Assembly: GCA_040954595.2 (NCBI GenBank) | Contig: CM082596.2 | Span: forward strand, 5,282,791 to 5,346,790 | Reading direction: 5' to 3' | DNA: 64,000 nt | Source of the DNA: Balanoglossus misakiensis | Lineage: Eukaryota > Animalia > Hemichordata | Shown here: in pieces, positions 8,301 through 61,600 of the stretch | Numbering within the stretch: position 1 is the stretch's first letter | How the letters are laid out: each line of letters starts with the position of its first letter | Translations under genes and position numbers: made by a program | The notes under the pieces: model-generated | What the model was told of the DNA's origin: nothing | The model's input: the letters and a program-made list of their open reading frames with translations, nothing else | Database searches by the model: none

Positions 8301-11300
8301 TGATTCTGGGATCTGAAGCGCAAATTAGACCCAATTAAGTTGGAAGGCCATGCGTGTGTTTTTATCGTGTGGGTTTTTTCTCTCTCTAACTACCCACCGA
8401 TCGGTATTTTGACGGGCGATGCTGTCAAGGATGCGATCGCTCCTTTCCCTTGAAGGGAAATAGCTCCAAATGGACTTTTAGTTTTGTAGCGTAAACGCTA
8501 ATTAGATTTCAGAATACACTAATGCATAAATGAAGATTATAGGAAATTTGAACATATGAAATCCGTTTCTTTAAGGGTACACGTAATTAGGCCGTAGTTG
8601 CCAACTTGTGTTTTACTCCGAAGCACCGACTTTTTTAATTGCACAAAAATGGTTTAATGCATTATGTACTCTGTGTATAATTTTATCCTCAGGTTTTTTA
8701 AGTATAATACAAGAAAATGAACTGGGTTTGACTACACATTGCCAGCGACTCCCTGTTCTTGTTTGTAAAAGGCGGAAAACATGATTTTTCCTAAAAATTG
8801 AAATGCCCGTAAAGAAATCTCAAAAATAGAACTACAGGATAATACTGGTACGACACGTACGACGTTTGTCATTTAACGGAGAAGCTCAGATTGTCAGGTT
8901 GATGAACTCACAACCCTGCTTATTAATTTTCCCCGTTATTTATTTTTGCAAACCGCCGTTTTCAGTTACCGACCTCCAGTTTAAGGGTCGATTTTCCCCC
9001 TCATTAACTAGACTCTGCAATAAACGACTCCAGACAGTTGATTACACATTTGTCACATCGATGCATTCTCTCAATGACCCGTGTTATTCACGTCCCGGAA
9101 AAGGTCTCACGTTTGAAGATACATCGAACACGTTTATATTGTAGGGGTCACACAAGACGTTTAGCTGCAGTTTTGATTACGAGCAGCAAATTCCCTCTTG
9201 TTTTTTTCTGACTCAAGTTAAACCCTCTCAATAGCAATCGAGATTTCTCTAACGTGTTCTATATTATTTTCATGTAGTCCCCTTCATCAGATGCACACAT
9301 GGAATGAACAGAGAAACAGAGAATCATTGGGTATTCAAAGTAGGAAATATGTGCAGGACCAGGTGCATCAGAAAACAAAAGAATGGTTGGGTGTGAAAAT
9401 GAACAATGGAAACGTTAATGAGAATGCAAATTTGTAAATACTCTTAATTATCAGTATTAGTGATATCACAACTTGCATAACGTGTGTCTTGAACGCTTCA
9501 CAGGTTTTGCCCGAGCGTTCTGTTCTACCTGGGATCCGTACTTCCGTGCATGTGGATCATGGAATTGGTTAATCTGGAGAGGCGTCTGGAATACCGGGAC
9601 AGACACGGCATGAACAACTGTTCCCAGCTGAACGTCTTCAACAAAGACGAGGCACTCACTACAATGAACGGGGTAAGTTTTCGGGAGAAGAATTCCGAAG
9701 ATATTTTTCTCTTCTGTATACACACAACTGGCCATACGTCCAATGGAAATTTTAGTATTGCTACACCAGAACTCTATATACACACAAACGCGAACATTTG
9801 GTGGTTATTTCGTCTACAAGTGCATTTACTATGGACTGCGACAACAGTGTCGCTTTAAGATTACACACATGCCCCCATTTGCATGCACACGAATTGGAAA
9901 GCTTCGAGCGATCTCTGAGTCTGAAATGTTCAAATTTAAAGAAAAGGAAATGCCGGGGGCCTTTACAAATCTCGCAGGACTATCCTACGCTAGTTGCAAG
10001 TGAGTTGGATCGACTCTTATTATCTCAAATTTCTACAAAGTCTGATTGGAGACAGGTAATCATTACCTTACTGTGATACTATATACCGGTTAGTTCGCTT
10101 TTCGCGAAATTCGGCTCGCCACTTCTGCATGGACTAATCTTTAGTGACCGTGGAAGATTAGTTGTGCGGACGGAAATGAAAATGGGATAGTCAAATCATC
10201 AGTCCGGTCGCTCTTGTATTCGGTTTAATCTTTGTTTTCATCACAGACCCGCTGGTTTCATTAAAGCTTGTTCCATTTCCACGATTAACATGTCGAGCAG
10301 GCTGAAATCACAGTTCGTGGAATTATTTTGCATAGGATTTCCATAAGGGGGGTAGTCTATTTTTGTATTTTTCAACTGAAGTTTCGATCCTTTTCCCAAT
10401 TAACAATGTCGGGTAGCTAGGCTGAAATTACATTACATGGAATTATTTCGCATAGGATTTTCACAACGGGGTTGTCTGTTTATGTTGTTAACAACAGTTT
10501 CAATTCTTTATGAGATTATGCAAACTAATTAGATCTAATTAAATCTAAGTTGATATTGATTTCTGACTATTGCAGTTTCGCCTGCCAATAGCGTTGAAGA
10601 GTGACGAATGGGTGCTGGCTATGCAGCAACTTCTGCTTGGATTGCTCATTGTGGGGCGTTGGATACTACCGAAGGGGGAGATCACGCGAGACCAGCTGTC
10701 GCAGCTCTTGCTGGTCTACATCGGCATCGCCGCCGACATCCTGGAGTTCTCCACGGAGGCGCTGAAGGAGGAACAGGTGAAGTGCAACGAGCTGCTCATC
10801 ATCATCCTGATGGCCGTCTGGTCGTGGAGCCTGCTGCAGTTCTGCTTCGTGCTGACGGCGACCAAGGTGCGCAAGCCGCGGATGACGACGGCGCGGGCGG
10901 CGCCGCCGTCCCCGGGGTTCCACTGCTGCGAGACGGAGGTGTGGGCCATCATGCTGACGCTGGTGATGCAGGACGGGCCGTACCTGTCCACGCGCATGTA
11001 CCTGCTGGTCAGGTACCACATCGACAGCCAGATGATGGTGTTCTTCACCTGCAAGAACATGCTGGTCGTCCTGCTCCAGCTCTACCGCCTCATCGTCCTG
11101 CGGGTGGAGAAACAGTCCAAAAGCGCCCGGCGCCCGGAAACGGTGTCCTTGGCAACCATCTCGTCCGCAGACGGGAGGAGGAGGGAGCAACGTCCCGCCG
11201 ACGCGCGGGGGTTCTCGAATCTGAAAACTCACCACAACGAGATCGACGTCTCGGCTTTCATTTTGGCAGCCAAGACAGAGGAAAAGCGGAGAGTTTTGAA

Positions 11301-11361
11301 GTCTTTGGAAAACTTGCGACGCGAGAACGGGAACGTGAATCACGCCGTTGAAATCACGTGA
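5312..11361 (+). CDS. TMEM26: Transmembrane protein 26; exons 5312-5502, 9504-9672, 10576-11361
   Basis: Spliced product MAVVTLVKACAVRALFAAHG...GKEWKW/FCPSVLFYLGSVLPCMWIMEL.../...GRWILPKGEITRDQLSQLLLVYIGIAADILEF...QDGPYL..R...FFTCKN matches TMEM26 hallmarks. GT-AG junctions are phase-consistent (2, 0). Confidence 0.9.
7843..7972. repeat. Degenerate (CAC/CAT/AAC)n trinucleotide microsatellite
   Basis: accaccaccatcacgaccaccatcacaatcatcatc... in TMEM26 intron 1. Confidence 0.85.
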
Positions 11362-37800: not shown

Positions 37801-40800
37801 CAAGCTAGCTGCCCCAGCAAATCGCTACAATTCGCCAACGAAGTGGACAATACACACTTTATTAGCGGTGCACCGCAAAGGGGATCGCGTTAGATCCAAG
37901 ATGTCGCCGCTGTCATGGCAACGCCGCTCGACTTCTTAAGAATCGGGCCATGAATGCGGGGATGCGCGCCATTGTTCTGGTCATAAACTGACACTCCTTG
38001 ACCGGTATTATGTCAGTCACAGTGATCCCTCTCCCAGCGTTGTCTGCATAAAACACACGGCTTTATACAGAGGGGAGCGATGACACAGTCAGTGTTGGCT
38101 TTGACTTTGGTCTGTTTTGCATGTCAAAACGAAAGACACGTCAGCGCTCAGGGCGATATCAAAGCTTTGATAACTCTGGTATAAACTGTTGGCATTATTG
38201 TCCTATTTTTGCTTTGTTTTGTGCATCTCCTGCAGTTTCTTGTTCAAATCTTGTATGTGTGATGAAATATCTTAAACTTGTCAACTCAAAATGTGATATC
38301 CCCACTCCATAATAGCAAAATGATTCCTGTGAAATCACCGAGAAACTACTATTTTAACTCTACGAGGTGTTGCTATTTTATCATGCTATTATAACCTACT
38401 TGACAACATCTGCTGAAGCAAATACCACAGCAGTTATGGTTAGAATCATACTAAAAACGGAAATTGTTAAGTAACTGTTATTAAACTTTGCAATTTTTTT
38501 CATTGATTTAAAAGTTATCCTATTACACTAAACTAATGCTTCCATTAATGGGATTTGTGTACAGTTACTAAAAATGGACAGATAGAATAAGTCACTGAAA
38601 TGGGACACTTGAAATTAAAAAATACACATCAAATGAAGGTAATATGGATCGAAGATATACAAAGGGAGCTTTAGGTCCGAAAATGAATAAACATAAGCAT
38701 TAAGTATGTTGTCAACACTGTCATTAGGAGAAATTCATAAATGATTATTGGCTATTTGCGATACTGGCAAAGACCTGGATGGGCGATCATAATTTGAATG
38801 CGAACGGATAGGGAGTACTTGTTCGGATGTTCTGCTCAGGATGGAGACTTCTCATAAATTGTGTGCGAGTCCTACGCGTAAGGTTATTTCATTCTTATCA
38901 ATAGGTTCCCAGAAATGTTGGTCTCTTTCACGGTTTTACGCTCAAATCAATCCATACTTGATTTCTAGCTCAACTTCAAAATGTGCCGTGTGCATCAATT
39001 GCGTAGTCATTATTTTCAACCATTTGACATAATTTCACATTTTACAAAAGCGAGAAAAAAAACCTAAATAAAACAGGGAATAACCATACAATGGAACACG
39101 GCGAAATCTTACACTAATTCGACTTTTCTCCCTTTTTTTCAGGAGGTCGATGTATTCGTACGGTGATGTACAGCGCCATTGTACTGGTGTTTTTCACAAT
39201 GATCGTGTCATCGTACGGTAGGTATATTTTGCAGATGAAAATCTGAACATGATTTTTAAGTTGGCATATTCGAACAGGTGGTCACAATGCTTAAAAAAAC
39301 ATACCGACTTTTATTCGTTGTCAAATATTCCATTTTGTCCTTTTCATTTTGATGTCGCGACCCTGGCTATATGTTAACATTTATGGCACAATATCAATTT
39401 TACAAGCTAACGTATTGTCTCACGTCAACATAGTTCTCAATGTCCTCTTTGTTTTGTTTGCTCGCCACAGAAACTGGGCAGAGCAGCGACCAGGCGCGTC
39501 TGCTGAAGGCGCTCTTTGACGAGAGTGGTTACAGTCCGAAGATCAGGCCAGTCTGGGACCGATCGTCTGTCACTAACGTCACCATGACGCTAGTGCTGGC
39601 CACAATCATTGATATGGTAGGCGTAGCATTAAACTGTTAACTAAACACCTTACTGAGACAGATAGAGGGGGCCGGACAGGCCGTTATAAACCCAAACAGA
39701 TAGTTGTATCTGAATATGACAGACAGACAGATAGACTGCCTGGGATAAACAGATATGACAACTGCATCAGCTCCTGATGAGAATTTTGTCTGGGTGTACA
39801 TACCATGTCCGGCTCCATCTACCGTACATTCAGCTCTCAGACTGTAACTATACTGAATATAAACAGAATCTACCGTGATGTGAAAATCAACAGAGACACT
39901 GTTCAACCTACCCTAGTATTTCACACCTCTCCAGAGCTTCAGACACATTATCCACGTAAAGGCCTAGGTCAGTCCTGGGAACAAAACACATGACAGTTAC
40001 AAAAAGGTTTCCACAACCTAGCCATGTTATTTTCAGAAACTCAGCCACTAGCAACCCAGTCATGTACTTTAAATTTATCCTGACGAAACTGATTTACAGC
40101 TGTAATGAAGAAATAAATGTAAAATATTTAGAAAACCACATTTTTGTCACATTTGCCATCAGGATGAACGTAACCAGGTATTGAAGAGTAACATGTGGGT
40201 CTCTTTGGTAAGTTGATTGCCCTCTACAAAATCCTAAATTGCAGCATCATATTTCCATGTCTTTAAAGTTGTAAAAATGTACCACTGTCGATATCTGGCG
40301 TGATCAGCTGTGTGCAGCAACGAAACAAATGTTTGAAGTGGGATTGAAATGTGTAATTTGGTTTTCAAATAATATTAATTAACAGCTTGACAACGAGTGT
40401 CATTTTTGCGTTTTTGGTAGAATACACCTTCTTGGGTTCGTATGCTTTATAGGTCGAATTTGAGAGTGTGAGATTTGCTAACTTGTCGATTGTGTCTTTA
40501 CAACTGAAGGAATGGAGGGATGAGATGATGCTGTGGAACCCGGATGACTTCGGTGGAATTGAGAACATCAAAGTGCCATCCCATGATGTCTGGCTGCCCG
40601 ATATTGTTCTCTACAACAAGTGAGTTAGCTTTTCTGGAGATCCATCCTTTTCTGGAAATCATTTGAGTTGAAGTCAGCCAAACCAGAAAGCGGCAAACAG
40701 TTTTTAATTTTACGTCGGATGCAAAAGAATAACTTTTGTGGCAAAATGTCATCATCATGGACAGATGTTGCAAGAGAATACTGACAAAATGAGAATGTTT

Positions 40801-42488
40801 CCTGTCCTTTGCAGTGCTGATGACGAGTATAAAAATTTTCTCATCAAGCAAGTGGCGATAGTCTATCACGACGGCACAATTTTATGGGCGACGCCCGTCA
40901 TCTACAAGAGCTCGTGCGCGGTTGACGTCACCTACTTTCCGTTTGATGTTCAAAACTGCACCATGAAGTTTGGGCCATGGCAACATGACGGAACCGAGGT
41001 GTACATGTATGGCAATAGTAAGTGTCCATACTGCAGGTTTTGAAATAATTACATGTGAACTCAAGCTTTATATAGGCCTATAGGAGATGGAACAACATAC
41101 ATGTAGGTTTTTTATCATCTATGGATAATCTGGAGGACTCCCCCCGACCTCACCATGGTTTTGATGACACCCCCAGCCCCCTGTCATAATTTACGTTTTT
41201 AACATTCTAAAAATAAACATGGAGTACTTTTCAACCCACAGGTGACACGACAGAATACGAAAGCGACGGACAGTGGGATTTGCTGTCAATGACGTTCGAT
41301 GCCCACGTCGAATTCTACCCCGACCACCCGGGCATTCCGTACACTGATGTCACCTATCACGTCATGCTGCAGAGACGGCCTCAGTACTACGTGTTCAATT
41401 TACTGCTTCCCAACGCGCTGTTCACGGTCGTCACCGTGACGGTGTTTTATCTCCCGCCGGAGTCGGGCGAAAAAATCAGTTTGAGTATTACAATTCTCCT
41501 GTCGTTGACTGTGTTTCAACTTATGCTTGCGGATTTCATGCCACCCTCAAGTTATCTACCATATATAGGTGAGTGAACATGCAGTTCTCCCTTGAAGATT
41601 TTCAGAAGTATTTCAAATCTCTTTGCTGTATTAAAGGTACAGTCACCTGTGCAAATTTAGCTACAGTTACCATGGTAAATTGAGATCTAGCCAATCACAG
41701 ATTTTCAGTGGGTGGCACAAGCGAAAAAAAGAGCGCCACCATATATGGGCGTATATAGATTGGAGGTGACCATCTACCTTTAAGATGAGCACTGAGAACA
41801 TAAATGTTACTGGACATGTGTAATTGTTGTATGCCTATTTTTACCGAATTCAAAATGGTATCGGACATTCGCTCTCAAAATGATTTTTCAGAAAAATCTC
41901 CATGACGTCATATCTTTCTCATTTCCAGGTTATTACTTCGTGAGTGTGATGGTACTGGTCTCCATGTCGCTAGTTTCCTCCGTTCTCGTCGTGAACATTC
42001 ACTTCGGCAACGCTGAAGAAGACGGAATGCCGCACTGGGTGAAGCGGGTCTTCCTCGAGTACCTGGCGAAGATTCTCAAAGTCCGCCAACCGCCAAAGGA
42101 GCCGCCCTACCAGTCGAACATCTCCTCGCACCGCCTGGAGGAGCTGAAACGCACCCCAAAGTACCTCCATGCCCGCATGAGCAACGGCGAGGTGCTGGTC
42201 CCCCTCATGAGGAAATACAGCACCGACCGAAACTACATCAACGGCACCCACCACCACCACCACGCGAGGAAAATCAAAAGCAACCCGTGCGACGAGAGCG
42301 AGATAGTCATTGAAGTTTTGGAGGAGGTTCGAAAAGTAGCAAGGTACCACGAGGGAAAACGGAGAGAGGAGATTCACAAGAGAGACTGGAAAATTGTGGC
42401 CATGGTACTCGATAAAATATTCCTTATAGTGTATATATTTGGAAGTATTCTGGCTGCTGTGTGGTTTGGTGGTCAAATGTCAGCGTGA
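34873..42488 (+). CDS. Nicotinic acetylcholine receptor-like Cys-loop cation channel subunit, formally non-alpha; exons 34873-34885 (tentative), 39143-39217, 39471-39616, 40163-40207, 40510-40619, 40815-41017, 41242-41568, 41929-42488
   Basis: Signal peptide, then [26 protein letters not shown], Cys-loop [50 protein letters not shown] (cationic GEK), and [14 protein letters not shown]. All junctions are phase-consistent. Alternative start is ATG 39166. Confidence 0.93.
41631..41783. mobile_element. Kolobok/T2-like MITE, copy 2 (nAChR last intron)
   Basis: TTAAAGGTACAGTCACC...GGTGACCATCTACCTTTAA; interior similar to the reverse complement of 43822-43935. Confidence 0.7.
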
Positions 42489-43238: not shown

Positions 43239-45570
43239 TCAGAATTTGAATAACCTGATGTTGGTACAGGCACTGAAGTAACATGTCCCAGCGCAGGAGT
43301 TCCCGTCCCACAAATCCACATGACCAGTTGCCGTGGCAAAATTACAACCCTGGAACACTATCAGACCTTTTGATCCCTGTAAAAAGTACAGGAAAAGATC
43401 TTATGTCATATTGCATGGTCCTTCCAAATCAATATTTATTATTTTTTTAATAGCTGCAGCTCTCTCGCGCTTGATTATGAACCTATTATAGGCAATATGT
43501 CGCGCGAATCATTTTAACCCTTTCACCACCATGGTTTGTTCCAAAACCATTGTGTTCCATGATAAAGTCAGACCTCTATAAAGGGAACTGGGGGTGGAAG
43601 GGTTAAAGGCCTGGTAGCTACCTTGTTTTCTTACATTTGACTGTACTACCAGCCCTATACCCCATATACTTTGAACGTCAAGTATTGCAATATTGCGAAC
43701 AGCTCCCTGTATGGGTAACGTTCTGACATATTGTTGATCATGGTAGCCAACAATAATAATGAACACTACACATACATGGAAAGTGTTTTCAAGGTAAATG
43801 CTGGGCGTTCAAAGTTAAGCCTTGAAGGTATACAGTAACCTCTAATTTACCACCCCTGAAAATCTTTAATTGGCTAGATCTCAATTTGCCATGGTAACTG
43901 TGGTTAAATTTGCATAGGTGACTGTATACCTTTAAGACAAGGAGTTCTGGATGAACCAACAAAAAGTAGATGTGTACATTAGACTCTCTCACAGCCCACG
44001 GTTCGCTACAAGGCTCTTCACTGATACGCCCGGCCTCAACTGTTTAGCAAAGGAGAAGCCCCATATCATATGGTGTTGTGTAGCGAACCTTAGAGCCCCT
44101 CTCGCCGGGCACACATGCAATCAGTCCATAAGCCTGCATGGACGACGAGAGGGGCTGTGAGAGAGTCTAATGTGTACATGCACAGTGGCTGTGAAGGATA
44201 GAAACCATTCTCACCTTGAACGCTGCTTGGTTCTTGGATACAATGTCTGCCTTGCCTTTGCGTGACTCCATGTAACACCGCATAGTGACGACACGAATGA
44301 TGTACTTGTCTCCATCGGCATTGCTTACTTCTGCCCAGTTGCATTGGCCTATCTTGATATCATTGAACTTCCGACCTGCTCAAGAAACAAAATAAACCAC
44401 TGGTAAGCATATGATACATATACACAATTCACCATTACACCAATATCTCATGAAAGTAATGATACAGTTGACCAATCCGAAAAATGTGATGTTTTAAAGA
44501 ACCAACTGGATTCACTGTCTTTCTCTCTGCACCTTTGCACCAAAAACTTGAGTACACTATATATACAAACCTGATGCAATGAATGAGTAGCTCACACGAA
44601 TAGCACAGGAATTCTGTCCAACCAACCACTTCGGAAGTTTGCATTTCTCGATCAATGCTGGAGATTTCTCGTGGGGATAGTTGCGCCACAAACTGGTGAA
44701 AGTTGGCCAAGCGTTTGAGCCTGTATGAAATAAATTACAAAATCATTTTATCGGCCATCAACAGAGTCAAGAACTCACTTTTTCAGTCTAGTGATAAGTT
44801 CATCATTTTCTTGTGTGAGCTTTTTTTTATAAAAGCAGTTCAGAAAGGCATTTGCAGAATCATTTTATACACAATATACAATTCAATATATATTTCGTTG
44901 CAATATAATACAAAATGTACCTACCGATCACATCTGACTCTAAAGTTGTAAAGTTTCCAAACTTTAAACGAAAATCCATACATCCTTTGCACTCGCAGTG
45001 TGAGGGCGTACTTCCACACCAACCAAGGGAGGAACAGCACGGAAATTGGCCGCGAGGATCACACTCGCCCGCAAAACCAGATGCAACGGGCCACTCTCGA
45101 CCACATCGACCGTCACTTCTCCATCTATCATCTGGGTTTTTTAAAAATACACCGCCAAATAATAGATCTTAATCTAAAGCGTTTTAAAGATCATGCAATC
45201 GGTGCTTGACCTCGCACGAACCCAATGGTGCCGTGCGTTCTCTTTTACTGTTTTAGTTTCACTTTCATTATCCTGTTCTCTTATTAAAGAGTGACTCTGC
45301 AAATTTCTGTGTGGCCTTTTCCATGTAATCGAAGTAAAATGCCAAAGTTGATTTACCCAAAATGTAGTTGGGTCACTTCACCTATACTGGGGTAATCTAA
45401 GGTCAGATATGCAAATTTTTCTCCGTGTGTCGTGAGATATCATATGAACAAAGGCGGGGTTACCCCACTTCAAATTCCAATCTGACGAGAAAACCCGCCC
45501 GAGTTTACTCACCTGCTGAAGCCAAAGTGATCAGCAACAACCCGGCAAAAACCAGAGAGCCCCTCGTCAT
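43239..45570 (-). CDS. Secreted chitin-binding type-1 (hevein-like) domain + Tae4-family peptidoglycan amidase fusion (dae4-like), 237 aa; exons 45570-45513, 45131-44925, 44720-44571, 44375-44215, 43376-43239
   Basis: Spliced ORF of 714 nt, all GT-AG, phases 1,1,1,0: MTRGSLVFAGLLLITLASA-DDRWRSDGRCGREWPVASGFAGECDPRGQFPCCSSLGWCGSTPSHCECKGCMDFR...-WPTFTSLWRNYP...NSCAIRVSYSFIASG...DGDKYIIRVVTMRCYM...GKADI...FKGSKGLIVF...ATGHVDLWDGNSCAGTCYF...LFKF*. NxCxIRxSY, YxxRV, GxxGxIxF and TGHVxLWxG are the Tae4 motifs. Confidence 0.88.
43514..43606. mobile_element. piggyBac-like MITE, copy 2 (intron 4 of the amidase gene)
   Basis: TTAA-CCCTTTCACC...GGTGGAAGGG-TTAA; TTAA flanks with CCCTT/AAGGG termini. 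Confidence 0.72.
43822..43935. mobile_element. Kolobok/T2-like MITE, copy 3
   Basis: TTGAAGGTATACAGTAACCT...AGGTGACTGTATACCTTTAA. Confidence 0.7.
43980..44169. mobile_element. 190-bp MITE with 18-bp TIRs and a 10-bp target-site duplication (Academ-like TAG...CTA termini)
   Basis: TAGACTCTCTCACAGCCC...GGGCTGTGAGAGAGTCTA flanked by ATGTGTACAT at 43970-43979 and 44170-44179. Confidence 0.82.
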
Positions 45571-46332: not shown

Positions 46333-48809
46333 TTCTATGATGAAAATTAAAAAAAAGTTGTTCAGTTATATTAGTTATATTAAATATGGGATATACTGAC
46401 TGTATTAAATTCTTTGCACCGTGTCTGGCCATCAAACAGAATTCTGAAAATTGTGTCGGTCTAAATTATGAGTTGCATTCACATACATGTATCAGCAAAA
46501 TAATTCCATCCAGATAAGATTAAAGTACTCTGGATATAAAGATTCATCAAATACATTTCTTGAACAATGCACATCATATACATTAGTAAATATAATGACT
46601 TTTTTGACAAAATAAGGCTTGTCAGAAATAGAACAGTGCAGCCATTATGTCCAATGCAATCAGCGCAAATCATTTCACACCAAAATGAACCTTTGCACCT
46701 CACAACAATGGTTTGGTAGGATTTACACTAGTGAAGTTCCATCAATCGCAAAGACAACAATAAAATGCTCTAAAACATCAACACTGGTCAAAATTATAAA
46801 ACAACACTACTGTAATCCATAGGAAAGCTGAAATCATTTTCTGCATCCTTCAACTCTTCTGATGAAACAATCAATGTATACCGATTCATACGACTTGTCT
46901 AAACTGAATCGCATCTAAACTGGAAACTGTCTATACTAAACAACCCTTTTCAATCACCCTTAACATATCACACTGTGCCTCAGAAGGATTGGACAGTTGC
47001 ACACAACTGATCCTAACTTTCACACATCAAAACAGTGTATACATTCCATTGGTGTTCAGATGTCCTATCTCGACAACATGTCTGTCGATTGAAACTTGAC
47101 ATACATAAATTTTCATGAAATAATTGTACAATGCACAGCTATCGAACTCATCAAACCTGGCTCAGAAGAACACATCATCAAATGTCAGAAAGAGTTAGGA
47201 GGATGAAAAGATAAAGTTACAAGGCAAAACTACTTCTCTTCATAAAATGAAACGGCTTTTTTTTAAAATGTCTGACAAGCCAAGAACATATTTTTAAAAT
47301 GGCGAAACACACAAAAAACTATTTCCACTTACGGATATGACAAAATTAGAATCACAATGCGGCACAAACTTTATGTAAATTATTGCCAAATTTTAAGTGT
47401 GTGTTCAACTTGCCAGTAAACCAAGAAAAAGAGAGATGTATGGTATACAATATTGTAAATAGTACTCTAGCATTTATGCGTATCCAGCAAAAATCAACTT
47501 AGACTAACCTTTGATAAGTAGGGTTTTCATAATAAATTACCCATACACTGAGTTGAACAAAGATAATGCTGGCCATTCTGACTTCGGTCAATCAAGACAC
47601 AAGCTTTGATTGAAAACATATACCATCCTGCAACTTGCACTACATTCGAACCTGTGCCCCTTCACTCTCTAACGTCTGAGTCCAAACCAAAACTGCAGCC
47701 TATTATCCAATCCTAGCACTGCTTACACACATACATTAACCGTACATATATTACGACTCCTCCTATTGGATTGCAACAAACGCCCAACTCTCACTGATAA
47801 ATCACAACTTACTTTGCATACAGATTAAAACTATCCCATAAAATAACACACTTCAGATCCACATGATCTGGGTAACAGATATGTACAGCACCAATAAAAT
47901 GTATAACCCTTCTCCCAATTAAAATATTTATTATGTAAATGCATAGGATATCATTTTAAACATGTACCTTCCCCAAATTATAGTGAAATCAATTTTGTAT
48001 TCCGACCACTAGTTAAGGAGGGTGGCAGTCACATGACTTTTTTTCATCTTTAAACACTATCAATGCAATTTGACTGCACTACAGATGGATCTCACAGGTA
48101 TCATTTGGGTACATAGATATAATAAAAGTATTCATATATCTTGTTTTCAGACGATTCATGAAGGTTAGCACACAATTTGGCAGCCATTTTGAATTTCTTA
48201 TAATTGTTAATTTAATTCGAGACTATTTGTTTCTTTGATGAAAACTAAACAAATTCCTTCCGTTGCAGCTCGAATGAATTCAGTTCAACATTTCTCTCAT
48301 CAATGAAATAGCCAAAGAAACTGAAAAGTAGAAGTGACCCTGACTGTTTTGAAAGAGACCTATAATTTGGGGAAAGTACAATAATTAATTCTTGTAAATC
48401 ACTATACTTCAACTTCCCTTGACATTTCAAATCTGACTAACAAGGCAAATGATCGACAATATCAATTATATTATATACAATACAAGCTGCTTGTGTAGAA
48501 GCTAATTCCTGAATGACACGGCCCACCCGTAAGGTGAGAGTTAGTCTAATCTAAACACCCCTACATCTCATCCAAATGGAACAGCCCACCAACACAGACA
48601 GAGGTGGGCAATTCTAAGTTTCAAGATATAGGGGTGAGAAATCTAAGGCTCCCAGAGTCTTCTAACCTGACTTCTGATATCAGCAATCCCACCCTGTAAT
48701 TAATTATCGGTAATTCATAATACTTGTATATTTTGGCAGTAATGTTGGGAGGGTGAGACCTCACTATTTAAGTACGATACTTGTAATTTCTTTCTTTCTT
48801 TCTTTCCTT

Positions 48810-51800
48810 TCACCACAATGGAGTAAATTCCATGTTTGAAAATCCAGGATCTTCCTTGAGCTTCCAGTATTTGTTGTTGGTCACCCAACATTCCTTGCCG
48901 TTGTCCGTGTCTTTCCTGCAAAGAAATAAGAAGGATCACTCATCAGTTTTCAGTCACGCATTGGGTTCTAGGACAGCTGATGTAAATGGCCAAATATTTG
49001 TTTAAGCACTGTATGAAACCTTCCAATGACGTCACACAGCAGGTCACCGGGGGGTCAGAGTGCAAAGGTTAAAACTATGCAAGATATATCATCTAATAAT
49101 GAGTTCAGCCACTCACTTGAAAAATAATGGTTCATGGGTGAGGTTCTCCTCTTCCCGTTTCTTCCGTCTATTTCTCTGTAGCATTTCTATTCTGGCCTTT
49201 TCCTTCTCGGCTGAATCTACGTTTCCTTCTTCCATCATTCTGTCGAAATAAACGAAACAGCAACATTACACTACAGTTGTGGTATAGCTCGATACTTCAG
49301 CTCGATACTTCAAGGATATAATCTGGGGGCTGCAAACACAGGTTACAACATAGACTCCATGAGTTTTTCATATGCGAAAGTGACTTCATGTGAAAGCCAC
49401 TGAAGATAATCAGCTTGTGCGAACACAATGACATCTTTCATGGCACTGGCCAAAAACATACATGACATGCTTTTGTATTGATTCAATCAATTTACCTCTG
49501 GTCCGTCCTAAACCGGGAATCGGTTGGCGGCAACAGGTGCTTTGTCGTGCTGTCAATTTCGTTCAACTCTGTCGCAAACCTGGTGAAACCATAGTAGAGA
49601 TCAAAGTCTTCTGGCATAGCACCTGCAAATCAAGGAGACAGAAATCAAGTTATTGATCCATACAGATGGTTGAAAGCATTTAGGTTGGATTTAATACTTG
49701 AGATGCCTGGTATATCACGAATTGCTGGAGTCCAACAGTGCATTGGGTGAAATATGATGGACCTAGACTGCGTGCTTGTACATCTATGTGTGCATCCATC
49801 CACCATCAAGAAGTATAGTGATATCACTTATATTCGACACACTGATCAAAAGTGATGCAAGTGTCAATGCCACAAGTCAAGGATGCAACGATGTGGAATT
49901 CAACATTCTTCATGATCATCATTGTCAAGACAAACATGTTTTGATGACAGATCTTGATTAACTCATACAAATGTAAGAATGCAGACCACCACTTCATATT
50001 TTTTTTCGTGAACCCACCTGGTCTCCATATACACTTGGCCGAGCCCGACACTCCACAATAAAGACCTTCAGTCCACTTGCCGAACAGATGGTGCACAACC
50101 TTGCCGCTGTCCGTAATACTGCCGTAGACTTCGTAACGCTTACTGCTGAAATAACTGGCCTGAAATTAACCACAAGCAGTGAACTTCAGCCTCTGTACAT
50201 CAAAAGGGTGACATACATTCTCAATCTCCACTCAAGGTCAACAGCATTGTACTTCAAAACACTGAACAAAAAAATATGTTTCATTAAGTTACAAAAGTTA
50301 CAGGTGCTATCCTTTCAAACTATGGCTACAAGTGTCTTACCTTAGCAAAGGTTAATTTACAACAGATGGCGCCATTCTTGATAATCATTTCCCCATACTG
50401 ATCCACCCAGCGTTGACCACTCAATATGTTATGTACACATGTGCTGACTTTGTTCCATCTATAGTGATCACCATATCTGGAATGCAATTAAAGATGAATG
50501 TAAGATTAAAATCACATTGTGAACATTCCACGGGATACTAGTGGAAAACAAGGAAGTACTAGGTGTCAGCTTTAAAAGTTCCAGTACTTGCATACAGAAT
50601 ACTGAGACTCAGAATATGATAACACTTACTTTGGTATTGTCAGATTGACAACACCCACTGGCTGAAATTCCATCGACTTGCCCCAGAACTTGGTTTTGAT
50701 TCGTACATCCTGCCACAGGCAATAGTTTTCACTTTCGCAATGACAGGCTGATATGGGTGGGTGATGGGAAACCTGTTCAGCGACAAATTTGAATCCTTTG
50801 TCGTCCCTGACTGCTTCGTACGTCTCCCCTAGCAACGGATTGAATGGTTTCTGCCCGGCACGGAATTGCGAGGCGGAGTACCCAGACACGGCGAAGGTGG
50901 CCACCAGAACCATTCGATCGTACGGGTTGTCAGACAGACATGCCTTGTCGATTAAATCACTGTACTCCATCTCCTCACATAAACGCTGAAAAAAAAAATA
51001 TTCGACAGTGTTTTCAAAATTACACACAGAAAAAAATCATCCTGTTTAATAATAGTGGGAATTAAGTTTCCTTATTCAAGATGCCATTGAAGTTCTGTCC
51101 ATCATTTTTATTGTGATAGTGTATTAGTTTGGGGAATTTCAGGGACCTATATACACTTTGTGTTCATGAGGTGCATTCTGCCTGTAACCCTTTCACCCCT
51201 GTTTCCTTCTATAGAGGTCCAACTTTACTGCAGAGAACAGTGGATTTGGACCAAACCATGGTGGTGAAATGGTTAATAGTAAATATGAGCAGAGAGACAG
51301 GTTAGCCAGGGTGATTAACATGATGGCTACACAGTTAAATGATATCTGATCCGACGTGACAATGGGAGATTCACCTGGAGCATGCTGAGCGGTTCATTCA
51401 ATGTGACCGGCATGGACACCTTGGATAAATCTTTGCCGATATTCTTCTTCAACAAATTCCACAGACTGAAATCCCCCGTGTCCGGTTTGGGAACCGGGAG
51501 TTTGCTCCGTCTCCCAGTCTGGGAATAGCTAGGCCGTGTCTCATTCTCCACAACTGAAAGTTTATCAAACACAAATTTGTCAGTCTTTTTTTTCTCTTGT
51601 ATTCAATATCGTTTGCTATCCATCGTCAAGACTGGTGCTTTCATAAGTAACTTACTATTAGTACATGAAAGACAAAGAGTGATAGCTGAGATCCAGTGTT
51701 ATCATTAGTATGTTAGGGATTACAACTGAAGTTAGTAACACTGAAATCCATTCTAAAATACACATAGTGTACAGTATACAAGCATTGTGCCATCAAAGGT

Positions 51801-54800
51801 ATGCAGAATGAACCAAAGTATCCTTCTTTGCAATGACTCAATTGGAGTGAAAATTCTGTCAAAATTCACACAAATCCCACAAAGAGCATACACATGTTTC
51901 ATATCACTTTTTATAGCTTACCACTGCTTGGACACTGGGACTGGATGTCCAGGGTTTCTTCTGAGTTGTCGTCTTCATCACTGAGCATGCTCGAGTCCAG
52001 TTCGTCTTCATCGGAAGGCTGCGTGGAATACAAGCAAAACACACTACATTTACTGTCAATGTCTCGTAAATGAAATCGGGGGGAACCTTAGCCTGCTCAA
52101 TAGCTGTGGTTATAGTTACATGATCAGGTGTGTACACGATGTTAAGTGGGCCAAAACATGGACTTATCTGCATTGTAGTGTTCAGTTTTCTGAATGCCTG
52201 TTCAAATATAGATCTTTATTATGTTTTTAAGATTTGAGACAGAGACACTCACTTCAGTGGATGAGCTGGATGCCAGGTACTCCTGTGCGTCAAAGAACTC
52301 CCCAACATCAGATACTGACATGGTTCTTTCGTGAGTTGTATCTCGTATCAACATAGGACTTGAAACTTTAACATCAGTCGGCTATGAATAAAACAAGAAT
52401 AAAGTTTAATACATACTGTGTTGGATATTCATGTTACGAATAAAAAAGGGCACACTTTATATTCAAGAGAAAAGTCATACTGCTGCATAACATTAAAAGG
52501 GGGAATAATAAAAGTGTCAGGGTTTGTTTGAGGTCATCTGTGTACGTAACTGTCTGCTAGTCTATTGCTCTATCTGCCTACCTGTCTCTGTCCTATTGTA
52601 CACTCTCATCATGTGTCCACCTCGGTCAAGATACATGTAAGATCTATTCAACCTTTACCATGCTGACATTTGATATATCTTGTACAATGTGTCTCACAAT
52701 ATCTCAAGGGCTTATCCCTTCATATGTTTGCCGTTTTCAGTGCAGTGGGTGTTGTGAGAATCATGACTGTGAGTTGAGTGAGTTGGTGAAATCACGACTG
52801 TTTACCTCGTCTAGATTTGCAACAGGTAGCATTGGTGTAGTGGAGAGGTCAGATTCTAGGAATACCCTCTGAAGCCTTCCTCGGAGATCAGTGTTTTGTG
52901 CGTATGCCTGCATCAAAGCAAATGACTGAGCATGAGTCATCTGGTCTATAGGAAAGTTTTTTCATTTACTTGGATTTTCATCACAAATATCAGAATTGCA
53001 ACTATCAGTGGTCCTGTTTTAAGTCTAGTGCTTGTGAGTAATGTCGATGTATAAACAGATTTGTGCTAGTAATGGGATTTGTGTGTTTGAAATCAGCAAT
53101 TTACTGCTAGATAGTTTTCAAACAATACTTGTGATCTTTGAATATAGCAAGACAGTGCCCATGATGATAACATGTGGCCCTGCATGTAAACTTCAATGCT
53201 GAAAAGCACCCCTGAATTCTTACCTGTTTAAGCTGACTTTGAAGTAAATGTATTTGCTTGTTTGCTGGTAGGAACTCCTGTTCCAAAGCCTGCTGCATCT
53301 TTTCTCGTTCCGACGTCATCGTGTGCAGCAAGCCGCGCATGTTTTTATGCACTGGGGACGGAAAGAAGATGTGAATGTGTTGAGCAAAATGTGGAGGTAA
53401 CACAACCCAGGTACATAAAACATTCGTCAGACGTGACAGGCAGCTGACATATGACGTTCAACGATAACAAGCAGTGTCGATCAAACTCTAACCAGGTCTA
53501 AATCATATTGATGTATGTCAATCACAGCGTTCAGTTTAGACACGTACCTTCATTTGCAGTGGTTATAAATTCCTCCCGGACTTTGTTCTCGTGTTCTTTC
53601 TGCTTGGCAGCGTTGCGGAAGAGTCGGTGGTTGGATCCCTCGTTCTTCTCCAGATCATCTATGTTGATATCCGGCAGATTCGGATTGGAAGCACTCAGTC
53701 GCATACTCTGTTCTGATGCTGATAACTGCAAAAAGAGAAATTAGAAACATTTATTTGACAATCTAATCTGAGTAGAACGATCCAGTTTCCTGCATTGTCA
53801 TAAATTCTCCAGGGATATTTTGTAAGCATCTTTTCAACACTCTAATGGTACTGATGAAGGTACAATGTTTTGGAACACAAAATCACACGAAGTTGCTCAA
53901 CAGAATTTGATGACTTGTCACAGTTTTTTCAGTCATTTCAATTCCTCAATGATTATGAAATTAGTTGATTCATTTTCAAACAACTCAATGTACATGTATG
54001 TGTGCATATCTTTGTTTTAGTAATGAGTACAATGGTATGATGTTAGTTAATATGCAATTGATCCTGAGAAATTCCATCCTAAACTTCTTCCTGCCAATGC
54101 TATGTTCTTATTTTTCAGTGAATGACTGACTCTAATTCCTGGCTCACATTATACCATACATTTTCATTTTGACACCGACCAAAGCCAGACCGCACACTGA
54201 CACACAAATTAATTTGATAATGGGAAAGAAATGTTCTTTCTCCTGGGAATGACTGGCCATGCTAACAGACTGTTTCTGGTTTGCGATAAAAAAAAAAAAA
54301 TCTCACTAGATGACTGGTTTGGTTAGACATACACAGTGCTGAGTCATTCACATCTAAGCTTAGAAACAAACGTGCAATGGACGAGATGCAAATATCACAA
54401 TTTAGTGTACAATCATGCCTATACACGTATCACTCTCAACATGTACCTTCTGAAGGGATCTTATCGTGGGGTAATAGAGTTGAAGCTGAACAAGAAGAAA
54501 GACATACGGACAAGGAATTAAAAATAACTCCAATTTTCGGCAATCACAATTAATCAGTGAGAATACATGTAATACTATTATCACTTATCTCCTAAGGAAT
54601 CCCTTGTTACATATTAATGAATATAGATATTAATGATGAGATTTATTATATTTATAGGGATTTTTTATTGTTTTCATAAACTGGGAAGAACACTGCAGTG
54701 TCAAAGTAATCATTCAAAAGCCTCTAATATGCAAAATATAATTGATTTTGAAAAATCAACCACCGATTAATTATGTTCGGCTAAGCTTGCAACATGAAAT

Positions 54801-57800
54801 GATAGGCAATCATTCTATTCATTGGATTTGAATGGAACTGTCATGATCTTTACACATCACATTTTGAGACACACTTTGGCTGTCATCTTTTTATAATCAA
54901 TATCACCTAAAATTTTCTATAGTAGAAGAATCATTTCACATCAATCTCATTGTCATAATATTACAATAACTGTCCTTCATTATCATGACTTACAGCTGTA
55001 CAACGATTTCTGTAATTGCAAGTGAACTGTGTTTGTCTAGATCAATATTTTTGTCTGTGATTTCATGGAAGAACCATCTTACCCTGTCAGGTGACGGTGG
55101 CATTTCAGGAATTTTCTTCTTCGCCTTGCCTTTTCCAAATGACAATCGTCGACTTTTCTTCGTAGATGCTGGAATATCGAGCTATGAATAGGAACAGAAA
55201 TCACTTGACTCAGCGGGGATTTGTGAAGAATTCTGCCACCCTACTAAATATTACTGCACGCAAATAAATACATCAAGAGCAAATCTTTCCAAACTGTTCA
55301 ATTCATACAACGATAAAATATGCAAATGCATTCAGAACATAATCACTACTGCAAATTTGTCATGCAGATTTCTGAGAAGCTCGGAGACCATTTTCAATTC
55401 CACATTTTAAAATTTAAGATACTTTTCTTATTGTAATCCACAATGCATCATGTCAATGCAGTGTTTCATTTAGTACACCACGGTATGTGGGAACTGCTTC
55501 CTCCCCCAATTTTCCTGAGGAGGAGGGGGGACTGTTGGGAGACTTGAAATCTAGCCACGACTCTATGCACAAAATGGCTGCAGTTTGCGCAGTGAATCCC
55601 ACCAACGTCAACGATGTACAATGTGACGTTTGCCGGCAGCTCGACATTCATCTGGCCTTACCTCGTCCAAGAGAGGCAGCTGCTGCAGTTCTTGTAGTAA
55701 ACTCGTCAAATGGAACACGCTGCTCTGTAATGCTGTTAACTCTGCAACAGGAAACAAACAGCCGCATGAGTGAATCAAGAACTCAAGCAAGAGACAAGAA
55801 ACAGCCCACACACACACAGCATGAACAGAATAAACACAATGGGTGATCTCTGATAAATCAGTACCAGTATGTGGGCGTGTGATATTTATCCAAGTCATTA
55901 TGAATATGGATGGAATGCAACTAGAAGATGATTATCATGTAATCAAGGCTTATTTCAAATACAGGCTGTGGGGTCATTCCATTTTGATAGTCCAAGCATT
56001 ACAATCTCCTGACTGACATAATTGTTGGGGACCAGCCCACTTCATTTTATGCAAGAAAAAAATACTAGTACCGGTATATATACCTTTATTGCACTGGTTT
56101 AAATTCGCAGTATCGCTCAGCCAAGCGGCGACCCTTTCCTGTCCCAGCGAAGTCTGACTCTGCAGCGTGGAACTCCTGGACCTGGAGGGGTCCTGTCGCA
56201 GTCCTGCGTGGATCTGCCGGCGCCTGGCCTCGGCTAGAAGCGGCGAGGAGAAGTAGTCAACGCTTGGCGATGCAATGTTGACCAGATTGGGCATGTCCTT
56301 CGAGCCGAACTGCAGTTGGTGCTGGCGGTAGAGGCGGTGGCTTCGCAGCTTGGCTATCCACTTATCAAAGGAGTCTTTTGTCTTCGCCTGTAACGACACA
56401 AATCAAATTAAAAGATTCATTTCGCTTTATTTGTAAAATTTCAATTAGTGACATAAATTTCATTCTTAGCTCAGTTCCTGTACTGTACAGTATGGGGGCA
56501 TATTTGCATAACAACAGGTGTAACTTAGACCTATTGAGTTTCTATTGTTGGAGAACAGGGGCCCCTATGTTTCATAAGAGCTGTGGGCAAAACAACTGAT
56601 TCTTGTAAGTGTCTACCGGTACTCTTAGGGGGTTACTGTACCTTGAGATGAAATATGGACTCTTCTGTGTCCAGGTCAATTCTTCGACTGTCCGACATTA
56701 TTGCCAGTACTGATAATCCCACATCAACACGACCATGCAATTTCCCCTTTGATATCTGCAATGCATATCAATGAGGAGCAATGAGAAATAGAAGAATTGA
56801 GTTTGTATTCAGTTTAGTTTATGGGGCAGTGATAAAGTAGGAAACAAAAGTGAGGGCGCCACCACTGTTTGAAATGTAAATCCTCGTTGCTCAAAAAAAA
56901 AAATAAACAGATTCAAAGACTTGCATCACAAAAGCCAATCAAGAAATTTCCATTACCCTATCATCTTAGCTTCTCTGTTATCAACAAATCTTTATCATTA
57001 GATCTGATAAATGCCAATGTTGCTATTTGTCACTGACAATAATAATATCCTAGCGGAGACAGCTTCTGCTGCTCTGAGATGATGCATTTCCTGACAGAGA
57101 TCAATGATGCCATAAAGTGTCTACAGCCATAACAACAACCTTTGTCATTTACACAAGCTCAGAAAAATCTCTCATGCTTTTGTATTTGCCAAACTTATCG
57201 GGGGCCATTTCACTACTTTAAAGTAAAATGCACCATGAAGAATATTTTTTCATGAAGGAGATTCTTTTAAACCTGCCAATTCTTTGCTATTTAAATTATT
57301 CTTGATGACAAAACTTTAATAATGACTGATACACAGCAATGCCCACTAGTTAAGGGAGTATAACAAGGTAGTAAAATTGACATACAATGAAGTAATATTA
57401 TCAAAATGTAAATAGCACCAAAGTTTCAAAATTTAGCTAAATACTTACATCTGAAGGCGTCTTGGCATACCTGAGTTCACCTTTATCAAGTATGAAATAT
57501 CTCTGAAAATTGAAAAAAAAAAAATCATCAGTCTGGAACAGCGCCCCCGTGTGGTGAAATTATACAATTCTATCACCTTCTGAACTGACCATCTTTGGAT
57601 AAATATAGTATATAGTTGCCAAATGTCTGAGACAAGCATCAATTATGGTTCATGGCACTTGGTTAAAGCGATCGCTTTAGAAATTAGTTATATGTGGAGC
57701 ACACTGCAGGCATCGCAAGGCAATTTTTTTATTTAAACAACCAATAAAATCTCATCAGGCCCTTGTTTGCCTACATCCAGCTGTCTCTGACTGCTGGATA

Positions 57801-58671
57801 TTTTCTTCATCTTTGAAGATGATTAAGATTCATACAGAATCAATGAAATGACCTTCGGAAATCTTCGACAGGAAATAAAGTATCCCAGTCAGTACGCACT
57901 TCAGAGCTCTTGTTGCAAGCGGGCCCTGAAAGCAGCCCTTTCAAGCAGCAAAATTACATTGTAAGTACTGCCACTTGAATGGTAGCTACAGATCGCATAC
58001 ACAATATCAGATTATTGAAGCAGCATATAAGCCTGTTATATCTACACCGATGGAGCTTTGCTGATATTTCAAATGTGGTGACCTTCACTGACAGAAAAGT
58101 GGGAGTCAGTAAACACTTGAGAAATTGTTAACTACTGTCTAATTGTCTTCGATTGTTTGTGTGTCTGTCTGTGTGTGTGTGTATCATGTATGTACATGTA
58201 TATCTGTCAGTCTGTCTGTCTTTGATTGTGTGTAGGTGTGCCTGTATTTGATTGTGTTTATCTGTGTGTCTGTCTGTGTGTCTGTCTGTAGGTGTGCCTG
58301 TATTTGATTGTGTTTATCTGTGTGTCTGTCTGTGTGTCTGTCTGTCTGTCTGCGTGTGTGCATGTTTGTCTGTATCTGTCTACCTGATTGTCTCACATTG
58401 AGATATTCCCCTGCAATACACCCACCTTGTGCCAACCTTTCATCGGCCATTTTCTCTTCTTCATCAGGAACCCATCATATTTTCCCGGCTCCTTCTCATA
58501 CTTTTGTCCCTCTTTAAGTCCTTCCACAATCTCCCAGTTACTCCGATCCAGAGCGGCTGATGGGGGCTGTGAGCCCGACTGGTTTTCAGTCTCCACCAGA
58601 TTGGTCGGCGATTTCGACGAGTTGCTGGAAATTTCATTTCTGTTGACAGCTTCACTGTCCTCACAAAAACT
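48810..58671 (-). CDS. OSBPL6: Oxysterol-binding protein-related protein, ORP3/6/7 subfamily (PH + FFAT + ORD), about 18 exons; first coding exon possibly 62369-62322
   Basis: PH start [16 protein letters not shown]; [13 protein letters not shown]; FFAT EFFDAQE (52300-52280); [28 protein letters not shown]; [12 protein letters not shown]; ORD signature EQVSHHPP; [11 protein letters not shown]; C-terminus [19 protein letters not shown] (TGA 48812-48810). Likely co-orthologous to OSBPL3/6/7. Confidence 0.92.
51184..51276. mobile_element. piggyBac-like MITE, copy 3 (opposite orientation)
   Basis: TAACCCTTTCACCCC...TATAGAGGTC...TTTGGACCAAACCATGGTGGTGAAATGGTTAA is similar to the reverse complement of copies 1 and 2. 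Confidence 0.68.
58155..58381. repeat. TG/TGTC-rich simple repeat containing a 56-bp tandem duplication
   Basis: Two copies of TAGGTGTGCCTGTATTTGATTGTGTTTATCTGTGTGTCTGTCTGTGTGTCTGTCTG within a (TGTC)n/(TG)n tract. Confidence 0.8.
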
Positions 58672-61600
58672 CTGAAAACAAAAAACAGATACAGAATAAT
58701 GAGAAAGGGCAATCTTTGTTGCTTTTATATTTTTATATCGCTCAGGACTCCAATAGAAATCGGCCTGAATGCAAGTGACAGACATGCAGATTACTGACTT
58801 TTTAAAACCTTCCATCCTTCTTGATGTTCTAATACGTTTTTGGATAGTTAATTTTAAAGTAAAACCCTTGGTTTCCTACAATTCTCAAGAGAAACATTGA
58901 CTTCTCAATTGGCTGCCCACACATCATATTTCACTTGACAACTCTGTCATTTCTTCGCAGTGCATGTACGTCATCAAATTTTCTGAATCATTTCATGGTG
59001 CGGCATATTTCAGGAGTCAATTCAGAAATCCTGCATTTCGGTTCAGTATTCATCTTAATCACGTCGGCTCTACACGTATTCAACTCTTGCTATTCCTCTT
59101 TCATCAGAGTCGTGTTCAACAGCAAAGACGGGACACACGCACTCTGAGTCAGCCCCAGTTTTGTTGTAAAGGAGGCTTAAACATGGCATGCGCATGAATT
59201 CTGAAAGGCGTCGTTTCAATTTCCATGACAAATTGAACTGTACGTGTTACGTATGAATGTGGTTTCTGCACTGTGACAGGTTACAATCACAAATAAAGAT
59301 TACTTCATCTACTATCCTGACATAGTTCGTGACACTCTACATGCTGCATCTGTCACTTCACGTCAAACACGTTTAAAAAAAGCCTTGCGTGTACACTCAA
59401 GGAATGCAACACCTAATTTGCGTCAAATTGAAATGCGAGTAGACTCTCCTGTCGATAACCAATGACGGAAATGTACATTATGTAGCTGACAAAAGGTGTA
59501 AGGAAAGCGCTTTTTCTTCCTTTCCTGTTCTGTTACTTGTACAACTCTGGTGACAGCAACAAAGGGGCGCTACAATGTCATTTTGTCGCAGTGTCTATCA
59601 TTTACGCAAAGCATACAAACATGTAGTTTCTCTTGCTGTACACTCTGGTTCTGCTCTAGGCTAACAGCGAAATTAAGCCATATGAAGTCACTACAAAATA
59701 ACTCTGTAGTATAAATTAATTATTTTCTGAGTAAAGATAAAACATGTCTACCAGTATCTCGCTAATAATACAAGATGAAACACGTTTTCCTTATGGTGAT
59801 GAGTCTAACACCTAGATATATTTGGAGATAACATCATATTAGAGTAATTGCACTAACGGTACACTGATTTAAAAGACACATGCACTTTGGAGTTTTAGAC
59901 TCATGATATCTCACCTCTCTTATTTTTAACGCACTTCAGACTTTACAGACACAGACTAGCTGAAGATGAGATATTGGATAAGATTTGGATACCTGTATAA
60001 CCATTTTGCAAATGGCAAGGTAGTATCTGTTTTTACTTTGCAAGTAATATCTATGTCAGACATCCCCAGCTAAGAAGAGCAAGGTAGTCCTTCATTTCAT
60101 ACTTCATTTCCCTGCCGTTAATTTCATACAGTATATTGATATTGCACCCACACTGATGTTCAGGCTCTGAATTGGATGATATGCCAATAAGCGTTTTTTT
60201 TCTAAGGATTCTGTATTACAGATGTGAGTCCTATCCAACAGCCTGTTTGACATTCAAACCACGTCACCACTCAGAATTCCAATCACACACAAGATTCCTT
60301 TCGCTCCCCGAGCACAATGCCTCTGACCTACTTTCCAGGACAGCTCGCCTTTCCCTCTCATGAACTGCAGACATTCGTTTTTGCTCCAATCTCTGGTCTA
60401 TTTCAGTTTTATGAACCAGACTCCTGGGGGAAACACTTTGCAAAGTAACCGATAAGCATTTCACTTACATTTGCAGATAAAAAAACTACAGTGTCCAAAA
60501 TGCACTTTAAGATTTGCCTTTGTGCAGAAGCTTCACAACTGAATGCTTCAACAAAGTATTTTCAAGACTATATATTACTTTTATTTGACTTGATCCTTAG
60601 ATACTAGTATTCAGTTTTTGTGTCAGTTTCAAGAAATATTATTCATTCAAATTTATCTATTCCTATGAGATTACATTGAAAATTGCTAGATCACACAGTT
60701 CAAAATATTTGTAATTATTTCTCCCAAATAATTGCAAAAACAATCTGACATATTTCATAGCAAAATAAGAAATTATAGCAGCTTGATGTTGAGTGCATGG
60801 CCTGCCACTTTCAATTATTTTTAGCATTGATCCGCTGCATTGTAAAACTGTCATGCATGAGGAATTCTCTCTGCCATAATGAGGCATTTGTTGGATCGAT
60901 TGATGAGAATGACTGTTCAGGTTCCCTGCGCATTAGTGTTATTTACATCAACGAAATTAACTGAGACCTGACATTGGGCTAATGGTTCCTCCTTGGGAAT
61001 ATTATACCGGTACACTCGATCATACCTGATTCTGGGCTGACATAAATTTTGAGTTTTCTGACCTCTGACCACAGTTCAAAATAGCACAGAGTTGAATAAA
61101 CACCAAGCAGATTTAAAGGTATCCATCTCAATCCCTAGTTGAGACATTAGTGGATTAAGTGAATTGCTTGTTCACTGTCATCTTGTAAAAAAAGGTTACC
61201 TGTTTTAGGTCAACTCTGCGTCTGATTTTGATCAGATTAGAGCTGTCACTGCTACTGGTTATTCCAATGAAATGGACATATGTTATAGTGTTAAAAGGGC
61301 CATTGAAATGGACTTACGTTTATGTTATTGTGTTTAGTTTGGCAAATATGACAACAGCTTAGCAGCCATAGGAAACCTGAGAATATGAGAGCTCAACGTA
61401 AGAAGCCATGATGACAATTGCCTGGCAGCATAATATAAACATGACAGATGCTGGCCGACAGATCAATTTGTAATTGATGTCTTCCGCAGAAGCCTCCTTT
61501 GTTTGAACCTCTCTGGCTGCTCATATCCGTGCCAGCAGTGTCCTGTTACAATTATAATTGAAAACAAGTTCAAAGTCCTTTTAGATTCATCAATAATGAT

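Follow-up and report, generated by a model that had tools for sequence, protein, structure and literature searches.

A hevein-like module fused to a predicted Dae4/Tae4 amidase in acorn worms

Described peptidoglycan amidases

Among described proteins, the closest in layout to the one considered here are BbtPGRP1-3 of amphioxus (4Z8I, 4ZXM; PMC4610682), in which a signal peptide, a module with eight cysteines and a linker precede a peptidoglycan amidase. According to the parts of that paper drawn on here, the BbtPGRP3 module has a hevein-like fold with four disulfides, uses Ser51, Trp53, Trp55 and His62 as binding residues and binds chitin beads directly. Acting through this chitin site, it raises activity by ~500% on Staphylococcus aureus walls and by 50% on Escherichia coli walls; chitin competes and lowers the module's gain by ~30%, and a W53A/W55A double mutant loses chitin binding and has its activity down by 75%. 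The same parts of the paper describe the combination of a hevein-like module with a PGRP as amphioxus-only.

On the catalytic side, the relevant enzymes are bacterial Tae4 (PF14113; 4HFK, 4JUR, 4HFF) and its animal relatives. As given in the sections of PMC3695027 cited here, Salmonella Tae4 has a Cys44-His126 dyad, with Asp137 needed too, and Gram-positive walls are poor substrates of Tae4. An animal version, nvDae4 of Nematostella vectensis, is secreted; it cleaves the walls of E. coli as well as those of Staphylococcus and is lethal to Bacillus subtilis, with no killing by the C63A form (bioRxiv 10.1101/2021.05.13.443009, in the portions used here).

The acorn worm gene described below shares with BbtPGRP1-3 the order of parts, whereas its catalytic partner is different: that of BbtPGRP3 is a Zn-dependent PGRP domain cutting MurNAc-L-Ala, and the one found here is an unrelated Cys-His enzyme of the NlpC/P60 type, Tae4. 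With nvDae4 it has in common the Tae4 domain, a secretion signal (here a predicted one) and the column of the catalytic Cys, but a hevein module is absent from nvDae4 and from every cnidarian, amphioxus and snail protein examined. Likewise, it shares the fold and the Cys-His dyad with bacterial Tae4 and is set apart from it by introns, a predicted signal peptide, Gly at the Asp137 site, the hevein-like module and the absence of any immunity partner that we could see.

Gene structure and domains

The window is a stretch of 64,000 nucleotides from Balanoglossus misakiensis (contig CM082596.2). Splice dinucleotides and reading frames delineate on its minus strand a gene of five coding exons separated by four GT-AG introns, with a joined frame of 237 amino acids and no internal stops:

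45513..45570, minus strand: coding exon 1, with the ATG and a predicted signal peptide; 19 codons plus 1 nt, ending at a GTGAGT donor in phase 1
44925..45131, minus strand: coding exon 2, an eight-Cys hevein-like module of the BbtPGRP3 type with a linker of ~14 residues; 207 nt, phase 1-1
44571..44720, minus strand: coding exon 3, in which Tae4 starts, with WP-x-F and with NSCAIR, where the catalytic Cys is encoded (44607-44605); 150 nt, phase 1-1
44215..44375, minus strand: coding exon 4, the middle of Tae4, with a YIIRV motif; 161 nt, phase 1-0
43239..43376, minus strand: coding exon 5, in which Tae4 ends, with GHVDLWDG, where the catalytic His is encoded (43322-43320), and with the stop codon

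The phases of the five exons thus run 0-1, 1-1, 1-1, 1-0 and 0-stop. Exon 1 has a 10-residue hydropathy of 2.74 and aligns with a hydrophobic stretch (24-40) of a relative, P0012. The earlier note had placed an eight-Cys exon of 207 nt and phase 1-1 at 44925..45131 without naming a strand; the AG and GT bounds and the peptide that it quoted are indeed there, on the minus strand, and the plus-strand ORFs overlapping exon 2 were set aside as a reading of the locus. A CC-x5-C-x6-C-x-C-x(1,4)-C pattern is found at a single place when the window is read in all six frames, and in none of 30 block-shuffled windows. The acceptor of exon 2 is the weakest of the four, with 9/21 pyrimidines as against 14-16/21 for the others, and the frame without this exon encodes a signal and Tae4 in 168 amino acids.

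The module encoded by exon 2 scores 19.6 bits against Pfam Chitin_bind_1 (PF00187), and its counterpart in the acorn worm Glandiceps talaboti scores 15.9 bits, both under the gathering cut-off of 27.8. A profile built from 91 further modules of animals matches exon 2 with an E value of 9e-24. The best matches among PDB sequences are gapless and are to the N-terminal domain of BbtPGRP3 (4ZXM, E 1e-13; 4Z8I, E 2e-13), with plant lectins next at E 0.003 and worse. Plant and fungal hevein domains (CBM18, PF00187) share the CCS-x-x-GWCG core and give weak matches (pokeweed lectin-C, hevein), but the window module has a longer N-terminal loop, other Cys spacing and His at the last site. All eight of its cysteines are in register with Cys27, 41, 49, 50, 56, 63, 65 and 68 of BbtPGRP3 at a constant offset of 18, and three of the four BbtPGRP3 binding residues (Ser51, Trp55, His62) are kept both here and in Glandiceps; Trp53 is replaced by Leu here and by Asp in Glandiceps. 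From its match to 4Z8I, a hevein fold with four disulfides is predicted for the module. In an alignment-based model of the Glandiceps orthologue, the Tae4 domain is folded and the module, with pLDDT 43-60, is not; the ESM Atlas leads for the module reach 0.86-0.87, all below 0.9.

The conservation of these sites was scored over 114 modules from 47 of 66 proteins, the other 19 having no match to the strict pattern: Ser51 is present in 100/114, Trp55 in 76/114 and His62 in 91/114, and site 53 is aromatic in 34/114. The earlier description of the module as deviant in Cys spacing and in its last residue therefore fails on both points, since the spacing is identical to that of the BbtPGRP3 domain and His is the usual residue. 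The idea that this His marks a degenerate site was rejected on the same count. By its sequence, the exon 2 module is unremarkable within a subfamily that is widespread and promiscuous, and what does set it apart is Leu in place of Trp53 rather than its His; by score it is not a canonical Chitin_bind_1 member, yet it is predicted to work like one.

Downstream of the module, exons 3, 4 and 5 match successive parts of Pfam Tae4 (PF14113) with 12.4, 17.1 and 30.7 bits, exon 5 alone exceeding the cut-off of 27. Together with the gapless match to BbtPGRP3, these matches bear out the proposal that a hevein-like module is fused to a Dae4/Tae4 amidase. The Glandiceps orthologue scores 77.3 bits against the same profile and matches bacterial Tae4 structures by sequence at E 1e-14. 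In its alignment-based model, the Tae4 domain reaches pLDDT 94-98 and a target TM of ~0.8, and the top 11 Foldseek matches are Tae4-family entries; a single-sequence model gave pLDDT 31. The catalytic residues of the window protein are intact (Cys in NSCAIR, His in GHVDLW), Cys being present in 48/51 and His in 51/51 of the aligned relatives, and the exon 3 Cys shares an alignment column with Cys63 of nvDae4. The site of Salmonella Tae4 Asp137 is Gly in the window protein. Among 11 animal rows, this site is Gly in 7/11 and Asp in 0/11, with Asn in the Nematostella rows; among the 55 representatives that could be scored (the other 92 of 147 do not have the motif used), it is Asp in 19/55 and Gly in 15/55.

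Distribution and history of the fusion

The same architecture is found in a RefSeq protein of Glandiceps talaboti, LOC144450778 X1 (XP_077997622.1), a likely orthologue that likewise runs from a hydrophobic leader through the module to Tae4. Identity between the two proteins is 41/64 (64%) in the module and 35/50, 37/54 and 32/45 in the catalytic exons; between the two acorn worms, the module is about as conserved as these exons. A second Glandiceps model, X2, begins at a Met in the 3' end of the module and is without the signal and most of the module. Compared with nvDae4 and other animal Dae4 proteins, the window protein is 49-60% identical where the catalytic exons align, and exon 3 has 21/49 (43%).

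A Tae4 profile matched 1127 Tae4-like representatives, and the 150 best of these were taken further. When a profile of the module built without the two Dae4-linked copies was run against 172 Tae4-like proteins, it matched one, Glandiceps X1, so that the proposed survey of Dae4/Tae4 homologues for this exon did recover the fusion, in that single protein. Chitin_bind_1 has no match among 76 longer Tae4-like representatives, and the hevein-like module is present in 0/7 bacterial Tae4-like loci. As the earlier note had supposed, then, the fusion is absent from the bacterial-type relatives in these samples, and inheritance of the fusion from bacteria was rejected because the module was not found in the bacterial-type relatives examined. 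Its description of Tae4 as a stand-alone domain, on the other hand, is too strict: the 76 longer representatives include fusions to SH3_3 (4), PG_binding_1 (3), eCIS_core (5), M23 (1) and RHS (1), some of them below cut-off. As a separate observation, a Dae4 paralogue of the acorn worm P. flava (XP_070570416.1) has DUF6973 ahead of Tae4, a second fusion to an accessory domain, and a Branchiostoma model (XP_078604954.1) has three tandem Tae4 stretches, either a repeat or merged tandem genes. Six bacterial Tae4-like proteins from Pirellulales and Bryobacterales (L001-L006) have hydrophobic, signal-like N-termini, suggesting that part of them may leave the cell by ordinary secretion and not by injection.

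A tree of 60 rows (the window protein, 18 named animal proteins, one transcript-like protein and the next 40 representatives; midpoint root) joins the window protein with P. flava (100/96) and then with Glandiceps (100/95), within a hemichordate clade of six rows (100/94). The other three hemichordate rows have no module, the Saccoglossus model among them starting at the catalytic domain and possibly being incomplete. The window protein groups with the named animal Dae4 rows, and the animal group forms one side of a branch at 99/66, which is not starred. An apparent module-less P. flava orthologue (XP_070570325.1) was rejected as a counterexample: its residues 1-36 look like the Tae4 start motif read off frame (8/8 residues compatible, and no more than 6 in any of 2000 shuffles), so its N-terminus, which looks like an assembly error or a broken allele, is not countable.

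A two-row profile search for the module itself found it in 65 longer proteins among 137 candidates. Named carriers come from amphioxus, acorn worms, Holothuria (a sea cucumber), Mnemiopsis (a ctenophore) and Vitrella, and the partner domains comprise LDLa-GPCR, MACPF, SRCR, F5/8, multicopper oxidase and PGRP; the module is thus a promiscuous, shuffled domain. The Mnemiopsis protein P0060 and P0014-P0016 carry it in LDLa-bearing GPCRs, and such LDLa-GPCR modules, that of the ctenophore included, suggest an old animal module. As acorn worms, a sea cucumber and a ctenophore have the module too, the published view of it as amphioxus-only among chordates, through transfer from plants, is weakened. 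The two Dae4-linked modules are mutual best matches among 93, by a small margin (211 vs 208), and the module tree pairs them at SH-aLRT 91, below the starred level; with 3/77 branches starred, this tree names no module donor.

The Tae4/Dae4 family was likely taken by animals from bacteria. In the window, the gene has these neighbours, recognized by Pfam matches of single exons:

40708-42488 (approximate), plus strand: ligand-gated ion-channel (nicotinic-receptor-type) subunit gene
48800-58900 (approximate), minus strand: oxysterol-binding-protein gene
10567-11361 (approximate), plus strand: TMEM26

Its position between the first two places it in the animal genome, and the nearest relatives of its product are acorn worm proteins. 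On these sequence features (host gene, introns, a secretion signal and grouping with animal Dae4), it appears to be a Dae gene. As the fusion maps to one sub-branch within acorn worm Dae4, it most likely arose after the transfer from bacteria, and a single post-transfer event in acorn worms is the simplest reading. We envisage that a module which animal genomes already carried widely would have been copied into an acorn worm Dae4 paralogue, downstream of its signal exon and upstream of its catalytic ones, before the Glandiceps and window lines split. The timing given in the earlier note, a module added after transfer, therefore stands. Exon shuffling, which it offered as the means, is plausible: the frame left on skipping exon 2 is a signal plus Tae4, which is the layout of most animal Dae4s and fits insertion of the exon. 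The phase symmetry that it adduced is weak evidence, as exon 3 is also 1-1 and the symmetry is not special to the module exon.

Proposed function and alternatives

The gene most likely encodes an antibacterial Dae4 amidase that is secreted. Its Cys-His pair would cut the peptide stem, as Tae4 (at the gamma-D-Glu-mDAP bond) and nvDae4 do, and the module is predicted to bind peptidoglycan GlcNAc, holding the enzyme on its insoluble substrate. If BbtPGRP3 is a guide, the boost would fall mostly on exposed Gram-positive (Lys-type) walls, and it would probably be weaker than in BbtPGRP3 because Trp53 is replaced. That a secreted Cys-His amidase is made more active in this way, by a module docking on peptidoglycan GlcNAc, mostly of Gram-positive walls, we consider to have slightly better than an even chance. 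Several results count against it. Trp53, one of the two residues changed in the binding-null BbtPGRP3 mutant, is non-aromatic in both orthologues; nvDae4, in the account cited above, cleaves both types of wall without a module; the Asp137 site is Gly, though so it is in most of the animal rows; the exon 2 acceptor is weak and Glandiceps X2 starts inside the end of the module; and the pairing of the two modules falls below the starred level.

The first two of these results would also fit a module that is folded but binds weakly or not at all, serving as a spacer, a stabilizer or a protein-interaction unit next to an amidase that acts like the lone nvDae4, as would a Chitin_bind_1 score under the cut-off. 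Against this, an aromatic residue at site 53 is the exception across the subfamily, and the majority states at the other three sites are kept in both species; we regard such a passive module as rather improbable. The presence of the module on GPCRs, MACPF and SRCR proteins also counts against docking, in that its ligands may extend beyond peptidoglycan. The module might instead serve to tether the enzyme to glycans of the host or the environment, such as mucus, chitinous food particles or fungal walls, a matter of surface placement rather than of better catalysis. The many non-enzymatic secreted and membrane proteins that carry it are consistent with tethering, as are the binding of the BbtPGRP3 domain to chitin beads and the competition of chitin with its enhancement, but the only tested module-amidase fusion that we found, as reported in the same parts of PMC4610682, gains activity on purified peptidoglycan, and we hold tethering to be unlikely.

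The weak acceptor, a frame that survives the skipping of exon 2 and the X2 model, which has lost most of the module, could further indicate that exon 2 is a minor or skipped alternative exon; equally, the gene could be a catalytically weak copy, given Gly at the Asp137 site, and in the exon 3 region the reference model of P. flava seems to be frameshifted. Under either version the fusion protein would be rare. We give this little credence, in that the frame has stayed open with 64% identity across two acorn worm lineages, RefSeq X1 includes the module and the catalytic Cys and His are intact.

The earlier notion of a lectin-amidase chimera has a close published precedent in the same module on PGRP amidases, with an approximately five-fold gain on Gram-positive walls in the parts of PMC4610682 used here. 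Already known, then, are both parts, the lectin-amidase principle for PGRPs and the fusion itself, as an uncharacterized protein in RefSeq. What appears to be new is the pairing of the module with a horizontally acquired amidase: titles and abstract openings among the literature matches listed name no chitin-binding module on Dae4/Tae4, though the original Dae paper (Chou et al. 2015) or supplements may mention one. Also apparently new is that acorn worms seem to have joined this module to the PGRP and the Dae4 fold alike: a P. flava protein (XP_070572361.1) combines two hevein-like modules with a PGRP amidase. More tentatively, and with the odds in our view somewhat against it, acorn worms may have grafted the module onto a horizontally acquired bacterial type VI toxin domain to yield a lectin-guided antibacterial enzyme, the module having been recruited independently to the unrelated PGRP and Dae4 folds, both apparently within acorn worms, and re-aiming at Gram-positive walls a family that in bacteria is poor on them. 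The surprise is limited by the promiscuity of the module and by the published PGRP precedent. The gene clearly illustrates how an antibacterial enzyme acquired by horizontal transfer was afterwards rebuilt with a module of the host. One small lectin module on two unrelated amidase folds also offers a direct test of it as a general booster of wall-cutting enzymes, with the module-less P. flava paralogues and nvDae4 as natural comparators.

As a minor feature of the locus, the last intron contains three short MITE-like elements (43970-44179, 43821-43936 and 43513-43607) with inverted ends of 28, 21 and 19 nt that are 89-93% complementary.
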